DNA of 64,000 bases from Shigella phage Sfk20, in sequence record MW341595; one strand, given 5' to 3'. Shown one piece after another: positions 40,810 to 43,044 of this stretch. Each line of letters begins with the position of its first letter. The first letter of the stretch is position 1. The notes beneath the pieces were generated by a model that saw only the letters and a list, made by a program, of their open reading frames with translations, searched no databases and was not told where the DNA came from. The translations under genes and the position numbers were made by a program.

Positions 40810-41334
40810 TTAAAGCAAATTAAACATTTTAACGGTCGGCAAAACAATTTCTTCTTCTATATAAGAGTATTTAACACTCTCAACTACACGCAAAAAATCA
40901 TAATCATAATACTCAGAAGCATTACCTAAAATATTAATAAGTCCTTCAAGCACTTTATTACCATTCACAAAGAATAAGTCAAATACACGTTCTTCATCTT
41001 CTTCAGATTTATTACCAAGATCAACTTCTATGCGAAAGACCTTTTTAATGAATTCTGGATAAAGCTGGTCTGAGAACAGTCCTTCAACCAAGTATTCATA
41101 AATAAAAAGAGATTGCTCGCTGAACAAACCATTACCACAATAGCGCTCAATTTTAGTACTAGAATATCTGCTTTTAAACTTCTTTAAAAGATACTGAAAT
41201 TGTAAGATTTCATGCTCTTCTACGCCAAACAGTGTTTTAGTTTTATAGTTGTCACCATCATTTTCCCAGGTAGTGACATCAATTACGTAGCCCTGCGGAA
41301 TTGTAGTACCTAAACAAATATTCATTTTCACCAC
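40810..41334 (-). CDS. hypothetical protein
   Basis: 174 aa acidic ORF just upstream of tRNA array. Confidence 0.5.
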   Translation of the reverse strand: MVKMNICLGTTIPQGYVIDVTTWENDGDNYKTKTLFGVEEHEILQFQYLLKKFKSRYSSTKIERYCGNGLFSEQSLFIYEYLVEGLFSDQLYPEFIKKVFRIEVDLGNKSEEDEERVFDLFFVNGNKVLEGLINILGNASEYYDYDFLRVVESVKYSYIEEEIVLPTVKMFNLL

Positions 41335-41624
41335 GCTGCATTAATGTAAGTATATTTAATACATTCAAGACCCAAAGGATTCTTGAAAATATCATATTCA
41401 AGAGGACCTTTTTCTGTTTCAATAAAGAAATCAAAATTTACTGTATTAAATGTACGGTCTTCCTTTACTAATTTAACTTGAGAAGATGAACGGCCAATGT
41501 AAACCTTTTCAACTTCAAAATATGTTAAAACGCCATAATCATCAATCAAGGCTTTAGCCGCGTCTTGATCATATTTATATCCATTTTCAATGGATGATAC
41601 TTTCGCATAAAGAATCATTATCAA
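41328..41624 (-). CDS. hypothetical protein
   Basis: 98 aa ORF. Confidence 0.45.
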   Translation of the reverse strand: MIMILYAKVSSIENGYKYDQDAAKALIDDYGVLTYFEVEKVYIGRSSSQVKLVKEDRTFNTVNFDFFIETEKGPLEYDIFKNPLGLECIKYTYINAAW

Positions 41625-42040
41625 CCTTCATCAACAATAGTGTGCGTATTGGCATTTACAATTTGCCACCAATCAAAGCGATTAGAACCATAATCTGGTT
41701 TGTTTTCATTTTCTTTGATAATGTCACGGAGTTCATCTTCGGTAGCGGCTTTCGCTATTAAATCAGCATATCCACCACGAGGATAATAATTATCACCTGC
41801 AAAAAGTAAAAAGTTTGGTTTAATGTTATTGAACTCTTCAAGAGTAATAACTTTTCCTGACGGTTGAACAATCTCTACATATTTATATCCCAATTTTTGA
41901 GCAGCATCTACTGCTTCAAGCAAAGTATCATGAGCCCATCCAATTTGACAACCTGGCTTTTCAGATGGATTAGCCTGATAATCCGCATACACTTTGTACA
42001 TTCTATTCACCTTTAGAAATTTTATCCATAACGATAGCAA
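41621..42040 (-). CDS. hypothetical protein
   Basis: 139 aa ORF; real start may be internal Met (MYKVYADYQ). Confidence 0.45.
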   Translation of the reverse strand: MLSLWIKFLKVNRMYKVYADYQANPSEKPGCQIGWAHDTLLEAVDAAQKLGYKYVEIVQPSGKVITLEEFNNIKPNFLLFAGDNYYPRGGYADLIAKAATEDELRDIIKENENKPDYGSNRFDWWQIVNANTHTIVDEG

Positions 42041-42188
42041 TTAAACCAATTAAAAATGCTACTACAAGTGAAAACACATTTTCTGCTATAGTCAATAATC
42101 CACATATAAATCCAACAAACATTGAAAAACTAAAAGCGGAAGCAGAAATTGCAATAGCAACATTTCGAATTAATTCACAACGTTTCAT
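42003..42188 (-). CDS. hypothetical small membrane protein
   Basis: 61 aa with two hydrophobic segments; GAGGAG RBS and early promoter upstream. Confidence 0.4.
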   Translation of the reverse strand: MKRCELIRNVAIAISASAFSFSMFVGFICGLLTIAENVFSLVVAFLIGLIAIVMDKISKGE

Positions 42189-42214
42189 TTTATTCTCCTC
42201 GGTAGTTGATAGGG

Positions 42215-42248
42215 TAATAGTATCACAACTAAAACCCTATGTAAACAA
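42215..42248 (-). promoter_or_regulatory. T4-type early promoter
   Basis: GTTTAC - 18 nt - TACTAT; GAGGAG RBS; upstream 30 bp identical to 42571 element. Confidence 0.6.
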
Positions 42249-42258
42249 CTTTGTGAAA

Positions 42259-42516
42259 TTATTTTAAATCTTCTAATCGTTTCTTCATCTTAGAACCATT
42301 TTTAGCAATTTCTCCTGCATCGGAGCATAATGCTAAAAGTGCTTTAACTTTAGTTTGGTCTCCTTTAAAAGATGAAGGATCGACTGCAGCAGCAAGTTCT
42401 TTAATACGAGAGAAAAGACGCTCAGCTTCAGCTAAAGCCATTCCAAGCTTTACTTCCATACCGTGAGAAGATTCAGTGATAGTGGTTTTTGTAGCAAACT
42501 CTTTGAAAGTTTTCAT
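42259..42516 (-). CDS. hypothetical protein with variant CTS-like N-terminus (occupies the T4 ipI locus)
   Basis: 85 aa; MKTFKEFATKTTITE-S resembles CTS with an I-x-E cleavage site at residue 15; early promoter upstream. Confidence 0.5.
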   Translation of the reverse strand: MKTFKEFATKTTITESSHGMEVKLGMALAEAERLFSRIKELAAAVDPSSFKGDQTKVKALLALCSDAGEIAKNGSKMKKRLEDLK

Positions 42517-42544
42517 TTTATTTTCCTAATTAATTTTGATGAGA

Positions 42545-42578
42545 TAATAGTATCACTACCTCATCAGCATGTAAACAA
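42545..42578 (-). promoter_or_regulatory. T4-type early promoter
   Basis: GTTTAC - 18 nt - TACTAT upstream of ORF 42259-42516. Confidence 0.6.
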
Positions 42579-42588
42579 CTTTGTGAAA

Positions 42589-43044
42589 TTATTTTAAATC
42601 ATCTGCCCAATCGAGTTTAAGAGGCTCTTTGTATTCACGATCTAATACGACCGGAATTTGTACATCACCGCTAAATGATAAGGGTCCAACATTATAAGAC
42701 AATGTTATATGCGGTGTGTAATCATCAAAATCATGTGTAGCACCTAGTGCCCGCGCATACATGTGTCTACAGCGCAGATATTCAGAATCTAACACAAGTA
42801 CAAGAGTCGATCCATCTTGCGTTTTCCATACTTCTAAATGTCCAGAAGAAGCTACTTCAAAACTTCCACTCGATGGAACATACGGAACATTTACTCTTGA
42901 ATAACATATGGTCGAATGAATTTTTTCTCTAGGAACTGGATTAGGAACACGTAAAGTGCGCTGGAGTTCTTCCAGCGCATCAAGTGTTAATTCTGAAAAC
43001 TTAGCTGCTACATAAAGACCCGTTGAAAAGTCTTTAAATTCCAT
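42589..43044 (-). CDS. 57B: 2H phosphoesterase (T4 57B position; Acb1-like anti-CBASS candidate)
   Basis: 151 aa; two H-x-T/S motifs (KIHSTICY and TPHITLSY) typical of 2H phosphoesterases; directly upstream of 57A. Confidence 0.7.

Follow-up and report, generated by a model that had tools for sequence, protein, structure and literature searches.

Which internal protein (IP) gene does Shigella phage Sfk20 carry at the position where phage T4 has ipI, and how did it come to stand there? We studied this question in a 64,000-nucleotide (nt) stretch of Sfk20 DNA (MW341595; hereafter the window), in which an 85-residue open reading frame (ORF) lies on the minus strand at 42259-42516, between gene 57B and an array of tRNA genes. 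An earlier reading of the letters alone, made without database searches (the sequence-only reading), had proposed that the region corresponds to the ipI locus of T4, and that it holds duplicated promoter cassettes and a small protein with a degenerate capsid-targeting sequence (CTS). We found that the window is part of a T4-like (Tequatrovirus) genome and that its 40.8-43.0 kb part is the classical ipI hyperplastic locus, with an ip5 allele replacing T4 ipI. The account that we favour as a whole, to which we give a probability of roughly 85%, is that this ip5 allele encodes a protein that would be packaged, processed and injected, that it has been shuffled by means of promoter cassettes, and that it likely acts against host defence. 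Ip5, this locus arrangement and the shuffling model are all already in the literature, and the analysis adds no new biology to them. The name ip5 has been in use since 1994, and the exact arrangement is found in more than 100 sequenced phages. Repoila and colleagues reportedly described the ip5 locus of RB15 in that year and proposed the cassette shuffling model.

ip5 stands in the place of T4 ipI

Every gene at 40.8-43.0 kb is carried by the minus strand, including the 85-residue ORF, which exists at the coordinates given by the sequence-only reading and begins MKTFKEFATKTTITESSH. The gene order is that annotated in the AR1 and T4 records, except that T4 has ipI in place of the 85-residue ORF and is without a 171-residue ORF (ORF171) found further downstream here. 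IP genes are expected either between 57B and trna.4 or between e and denV, and ip5 is located between 57B and trna.4, which is the T4 ipI position as had been proposed. The opposite outcome, a locus identical in content to that of T4 with a canonical IPI, was not found, as T4 has ipI here and lacks ORF171, and the 85-residue ORF encodes another internal protein, which has a capsid-targeting leader.

In a tblastn search, the product of the ORF was 100% identical to Ip5 of RB15, RB32, RB7, ACG-C40 and Yersinia phage PST (named ipV), and 98.8% identical to the T2 protein. PHROGs assigned it to phrog_3499 'internal head protein' (1e-49), while scans of Pfam and NCBIfam with the five ORFs of the interval (171, 96, 126, 61 and 85 residues; four had been counted before) returned no family for any of them. 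Homologues of Ip5 were identified by tblastn in 496 phage records and the mature T4 IPI* sequence in 292, which makes Ip5 no less common than IPI in the phages sequenced. Megablast of 40700-43100 matched 835 phage records, in 110 of which at least 80% of the query is contained in a single piece. The closest relatives over this interval were Escherichia phage ECp13 (99.3%), AugustSocin (98.3%), AR1 (95.4%), and Sf24 and others (about 95%).

We also observed Ip5 homologues with about 48% (47.6%) identity in 228 RB69-like (Mosigvirus) records, in which they lie between the lysozyme gene e and denV (the ipII/ipIII locus) and not beside 57B; this placement was taken from locus L042 (NC_041863.1, 1501-1782). 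One IP family thus occupies both IP loci in different genera.

An IPI-type leader precedes an unrelated mature protein

The leader of Ip5 comprises residues 1-15, MKTFKEFATKTTITE (42516-42472, minus strand). The gp21 prohead protease cuts after L/I-X-E, the CTS propeptides of IPs are 10-19 residues long, and positions 4 and 7 are important (PMC9026906). Ip5 begins with MKTFKEF, which carries aromatic residues at positions 4 and 7 as in the N-termini of T4-type IPs, and its propeptide is closed by the gp21 motif Ile13-Thr14-Glu15. BLASTP of Ip5 against T4 IPI gave a match that was limited to residues 1-22 (MKTFKEFATKT----TITES versus MKTFKEFTSTTTPVSTITEA). At the nt level, the similarity spans the leader with a 12-nt indel and ends at the ITE codons. 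All IPs of the locus, including IPI, Ip7, Ip8 and Ip9, align on MKT[FY][KQ].F...I-x-E. The solved IPI* structure (PDB 2JUB) covers IPI residues 20-95 and therefore begins directly after ITE19, and in a divergent Ip5 homologue (P0004) the 10-residue leader MQTYQTFITE is fused straight to SSHGMEVKLG. On the basis of the leader alignments, the 2JUB start, the P0004 junction and the gp21 motif, we place the predicted cleavage after Glu15, where the sequence-only reading had also suggested a protease site. Judged from these alignments, the Ip5 leader is an IPI-type extended leader homologous to that of T4 IPI. The earlier descriptions of a degenerate CTS and of an N-terminus that differs from IPI do not hold, and they were probably based on the IPII/IPIII leader MKTYQEFIAE instead.

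The predicted mature protein, Ip5*, consists of residues 16-85 (42471-42262, minus strand; 70 residues, 7.5 kDa, isoelectric point (pI) 9.2). Could it be an orthologue of T4 IPI that has diverged fast and has kept its function of inhibiting the CT596-type GmrSD enzyme? The genomic position and the IPI-type extended leader are shared, and the two mature proteins are alike in size and charge, IPI* having 76 residues and a pI of 9.0. However, beyond residue 22 there is no sequence similarity, as the BLASTP match covers only the leader, and between flanks of 95-100% nt identity the body is no more alike than random sequence, which is the signature of replacement rather than of divergence. Furthermore, several distinct ip genes stand in tandem in some phages. 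An AlphaFold2 model of Ip5 (predicted local distance difference test score (pLDDT) 71), which was built from a shallow alignment of five sequences and is of moderate confidence, showed long antiparallel helices at residues 17-44 and 54-84, no strands and a disordered leader. Foldseek comparison of the model with the PDB found no match at E<=1e-3, only generic helical hairpins, and 2JUB was not among them; a PDB sequence search with Ip5 returned only chance matches and nothing at E<0.7. Mature Ip5 is thus predicted to form an antiparallel two-helix hairpin, whereas IPI* (2JUB) has an alpha/beta fold. We rejected Ip5 as a diverged IPI, an origin that we regard as highly improbable, on the grounds that similarity ends after the leader and the body is at random level between well-conserved flanks. 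Ip5 is a different protein behind an IPI-type leader.

Elsewhere in the window, a second ORF with a CTS leader was identified at 32656-33129 (minus strand). It encodes 157 residues, beginning MKTYQEFITE followed by AA, and has a late-promoter-like TATAAATA at 33164-33171, about 35 nt upstream. It presumably represents an IP of the second IP locus, the one close to gene e.

Differences in ip-gene content begin and end in promoter cassettes

Two promoter cassettes flank ip5. Cassette P1 (42517-42604, minus strand) leads from 57B to ip5 and contains an A/T-rich upstream element, a -35 box TTTACA (42575-42570), a 17-nt spacer, a TG-extended -10 box TACTAT (42552-42547), and a Shine-Dalgarno (SD) sequence AGGA followed by ATG. 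Cassette P2 (42189-42274, minus strand) leads from ip5 to trna.4 and has the same upstream element, TTTACA at 42245-42240, a 17-nt spacer, a TG-extended TACTAT at 42222-42217, and the SD sequence GAGGAG followed by ATG. Both promoters match the sigma-70/T4-early type on the minus strand (TTTACA, 17 nt, TGnTACTAT), and the two early promoters of the sequence-only reading were confirmed, with TACTAT ending at 42547 and 42217. They also fit the published early promoter consensus for the PST/T4 pair, TTTACW-N17-TAYWAT (PMC4122927). P1 is almost identical to the T4 cassette between 57B and ipI, and the T4 cassettes nearly match both of this genome's.

The cassettes share long direct repeats. The 30-mer GTAAACAACTTTGTGAAATTATTTTAAATC has exactly two occurrences (42241-42270 and 42571-42600), with 0 expected in shuffles. 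The identical upstream segment of about 30 bp that had been described is therefore present in two exact copies, and its exact length is 32 bp (42239-42270 and 42569-42600). This core lies inside a 69-nt direct repeat with 83% identity (42206-42274 versus 42536-42604, 330 nt apart), and a second repeat of 17 nt (42183-42199 and 42511-42527) spans the SD sequence and start codon. The exact repeat starts within coding sequence, GAT TTA AAA TAA, so that 57B (42600-42589) and ip5 (42270-42259) share their last three codons and stop, Asp-Leu-Lys-stop. The near-copy reported at 10333 is also real: at 10333-10360 the upstream element reads GTAAACAACTTTGTGAAAATTATTTTA, with one extra A, and was missed by an ungapped search allowing three mismatches. 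It belongs to a third early-type promoter with an upstream element (10309-10360, minus strand; promoter at 10337-10309).

To locate the differences from T4, we calculated a sliding nt identity profile from 43400 to about 40820. Identity was 97-100% over 43400-42518 (the end of gene 1, 57A, 57B and P1), at random level over 42517-42274 (the ip body), and 95-100% over 42273-42034 (P2 and trna.4). Further downstream, the 5′ half of trna.3 (42033-41796) was divergent, the remainder of trna.3 and trna.2 (41795-41356) was about 93% identical, and the segment from about 41355 to 40820, which holds ORF171, had no T4 counterpart.

Comparison with other relatives agreed with the hyperplastic nature claimed for the locus. 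In 36 related IMG/VR loci retrieved with the 57B protein, 0-5 small leader-bearing ORFs starting MKT[FY].. lie between 57B and trna.4, and RB15 carries ip5-ip9-ip7-ip8 at this locus, 1013 nt more than here. In three relatives with a second ip gene after ip5 (vB_VIPECOOM01, JLBYU31 and IMG/VR locus L006), the corresponding cassettes showed that P2 is chimeric, being equal to their post-ip5 cassette over 42273-42206 and to their pre-trna.4 cassette over 42226-42188. The crossover interval against these two-IP relatives is 42206-42226, a 21-nt segment GTGATACTATTACCCTATCAA that comprises the -10 box and the 3′ arm of an inverted repeat, and 298-301 nt are missing here. The comparison with RB15 gives GGAGAATAAAATGAAA (42198-42183) as the crossover interval.

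In all four ip-gene content differences examined, both borders fell within cassette or leader sequence; the differences from T4, RB15 and the three two-IP relatives start and stop in cassettes, and in every comparison made the breakpoints map to the cassette and leader homologies that flank the ip modules. These positions support cassette-mediated gene shuffling, and the idea that the cassettes serve as substrates for it was borne out in that they coincide with the breakpoints of gene-content differences. The model itself is already published (Repoila 1994; Arbiol 2010; Comeau 2014). We propose that the segment coding for the mature protein would behave as a module, with the conserved promoter, SD sequence and leader codons on its 5′ side and the next promoter cassette on its 3′ side. 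Homologous recombination in homologies of 20-90 nt, either between co-infecting phages or between tandem cassettes, would then swap, insert or delete ip genes.

An alternative is that P1 and P2 are ordinary strong early promoters that are alike through selection and have no special part in shuffling, the variation having arisen by illegitimate recombination, homing endonucleases or similar routes. The upstream element is found at the unrelated promoter at 10333 as well, and Comeau 2014 counts homing endonucleases, as well as random short homologies, among further routes (PMC4122927). In addition, the junctions of the ORF171 loss in T4 lie in no cassette; the last nucleotides of the ORF (TGCTTTAA) were left in place, and the loss looks like a simple microhomology deletion. 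The borders of the divergent 5′ half of trna.3, where alleles differ, also carry no cassette. Against this alternative stand the cassette or leader borders of all four ip-content differences and the crossovers between the -10 box and SD/ATG that were demonstrated experimentally for RB49/phi1, in which mini-circles were detected (PMC2839356). We therefore consider it unlikely, and prefer cassette-mediated shuffling for the ip genes.

Inverted repeats enclose the -10 boxes of both cassettes

The extended -10 box is enclosed by 7-bp inverted repeats in both cassettes, with the arms TGATGAG/CTCATCA at 42566-42560 and 42543-42537 in P1 and ATAGGGT/ACCCTAT at 42240-42234 and 42215-42209 in P2; the stem of the T4 P1 cassette is 10 bp. 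When sequences were shuffled with the promoter boxes held fixed, each 7-bp stem recurred in 3-4% of shuffles. Most other early-type promoters of the window are without such a stem. As an exception, the early-type promoter at 37447-37475 (minus strand) has a 10-bp inverted repeat, ACAGGCTCAT/ATGAGCCTGT, around its -10 box, and T4 has a homologous site.

Covariation was then assessed in one hairpin register over 21 cassettes. We found 58% of the cells paired, compared with 55.5% after shuffling (30 of 500 shuffles reached the observed value) and 33-49% in slid controls, and seven pairs vary on both sides. These values are suggestive and lend modest support to conservation of the inverted repeat, and we do not claim a conserved structure. 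A terminator scan of both cassettes found no terminator-like site. The inverted repeats around the -10 boxes may be functional rather than incidental, either as a hairpin in read-through RNA or by forming a DNA structure favourable to recombination.

Predicted processing and function of Ip5

How would the ip5 product act? From P1, ip5 would be transcribed early, and P2 would drive the tightly packed trna.4-trna.3-trna.2-ORF171 operon that runs into the tRNA array. As expected from the leader and from T4 biology (PMC9026906), the 85-residue precursor would enter the prohead core through its N-terminal capsid-targeting leader, gp21 would cut it after Ile13-Thr14-Glu15, and the 70-residue basic product would reside in the head and be injected along with the DNA. 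Each of T4 Ip1, Ip2 and Ip3 blocks a different type IV restriction enzyme of the GmrSD type (PMC12373910), and by analogy with them Ip5 would neutralise a host defence directed at modified DNA as it enters. Most likely, then, Ip5 is a packaged, gp21-processed and injected anti-defence protein.

Several observations weigh against this account. The packaging, processing and injection of Ip5 are carried over from its leader and from T4 biology, and our literature searches on Ip5 found no functional work and no data on any of these three steps. Silas et al. 2025 assayed ip4-10 against GmrSD variants and saw no reproducible inhibition, so the analogy with anti-type-IV-restriction proteins is unproven for Ip5 (PMC12373910). 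Directly upstream of ip5 there is only an early-type promoter, whereas prohead assembly is late, and the nearest late-type TATAAATA on the ip5 strand lies about 1.1 kb upstream, at 43642-43649 in gene 1; expression of ip5 at the right time is therefore assumed. The two cassettes may resemble each other simply as strong T4 early promoters do, and the third copy of the upstream element, at 10333, is far from any IP gene. The moderate confidence of the fold model also belongs among these points.

Ip5 might instead be chiefly a structural or DNA-associated head-filling protein that neutralises charge or interacts with the scaffold. Ip5 is small and basic, T4 IPIII mutants have head-assembly defects (PMC9026906), and the GmrSD screen gave no target for ip4-10 (PMC12373910). 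However, ip genes are extremely polymorphic in their presence or absence, which suits an arms race better than a structural role, anti-restriction targets are known for each of the three T4 IPs (PMC12373910), and the locus adjoins another counter-defence gene, that of Acb1. A head-filling role thus appears rather improbable, and an injected anti-defence protein is our preferred interpretation. A bolder version of it, which we put forward tentatively and do not favour, is that mature Ip5 inhibits a host defence unlike all GmrSD variants tested so far and would thereby define a new kind of injected anti-defence protein; a functional role of the inverted repeats is a secondary and equally tentative part of this proposal.

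What Ip5 targets matters for understanding which hosts therapeutic T-even phages can infect, and about 500 sequenced T-even-type phages, T2 among them, carry the mature protein. IPs are now known to inhibit type IV restriction enzymes in a subtype-specific way, and together with the neighbouring Acb1 they point to a small counter-defence island. The present case also confirms that an IP locus, its capsid-targeting leader and its promoter-cassette architecture can be recognised by reading the raw sequence.

Neighbouring genes and the tRNA array

Upstream of ip5, the minus strand carries gene 1 (43286-44011), 57A (43044-43286) and 57B (42589-43044). The product of 57B is Acb1, an anti-CBASS (antiphage signalling system based on cyclic oligonucleotides) phosphodiesterase (Pfam Acb1, 3e-60), and the gene has about 97-100% nt identity to T4. 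As 57B adjoins ip5, the two form a small counter-defence cluster (42259-43044, minus strand) upstream of the tRNA operon.

Downstream of ip5 on the same strand lie trna.4 (42003-42188; hydrophobic, 61 residues, 98% identical to T4 Trna.4; phrog_1692), trna.3 (41621-42001; 126 residues; phrog_1411), trna.2 (41328-41618; 96 residues, 91% identical to T4 Trna.2; phrog_2023) and the conserved hypothetical ORF171 (40810-41325; phrog_2290). ORF171 is present in T2, AR1, RB32 and many Straboviridae, and is absent from T4. We observed that trna.3 is mosaic with respect to T4, with a strongly divergent 5′ half (41796-42033, minus strand), a nearly identical 3′ half and 58% identity of the protein overall. 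Two N-terminal alleles of trna.3, MYKVYA... and MNVEYY..., recur in related loci.

The tRNA array follows downstream of this operon. Ten tRNA genes (Arg, Asn, Tyr, Met/CAU, Thr, Ser, Pro, Gly, Leu and Gln) were identified at 39896-40723 on the minus strand by ARAGORN and Rfam, and tRNAs alone were detected in the Rfam scan. The array, with its Asn, Tyr and CAU-anticodon tRNAs, is densely packed and contains no seg homing-endonuclease gene, whereas the T4 array consists of eight tRNAs interrupted by segB and that of AR1 contains segD. An exact 13-nt repeat (GGATATAAATATG, coding strand) at 41570-41582 and 41878-41890 puts a late-promoter-like TATAAATA in trna.2 and in trna.3, upstream of the array, and these motifs may serve the tRNA genes as late promoters.

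Comparison with known systems

One close counterpart of Ip5 is T4 IPI, whose mature form IPI* (2JUB) is an injected inhibitor of a GmrSD type IV restriction enzyme. Ip5 shares with it the locus, the flanking cassettes (95-100% nt identity) and a leader of the form MKTFKEF...ITE ending in the gp21 site. In contrast, the Ip5 leader is 4 residues shorter, the mature sequence is unrelated, and a two-helix hairpin is predicted in place of the alpha/beta fold. The Ip5 locus of RB15 is more similar, with an identical protein encoded directly downstream of 57B behind a matching promoter cassette. In RB15, however, ip9, ip7 and ip8 lie between ip5 and trna.4, whereas here trna.4 follows ip5 directly, as in AR1 and RB32.

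For the cassettes, the known counterparts are the promoter-early stem-loops (PeSLs) described for RB49/phi1, PST/T4 and nt-1/KVP40 (PMC2839356, PMC4122927). The stem-loop of published PeSLs is found just upstream of the promoter, where it serves as a terminator, whereas P1 and P2 have no stem-loop upstream of the -35 box, and their inverted repeat surrounds the -10 box with no T-run after it. In the remaining features the two agree. P1 and P2 combine an A/T-rich upstream region, an early sigma-70-like promoter, an SD sequence and the start codon in one conserved unit, as PeSLs do within about 90 nt. Like PeSLs, they flank small variable ORFs, and the junctions of indels and replacements lie inside them, the indel junctions falling between the -10 box and SD/ATG.

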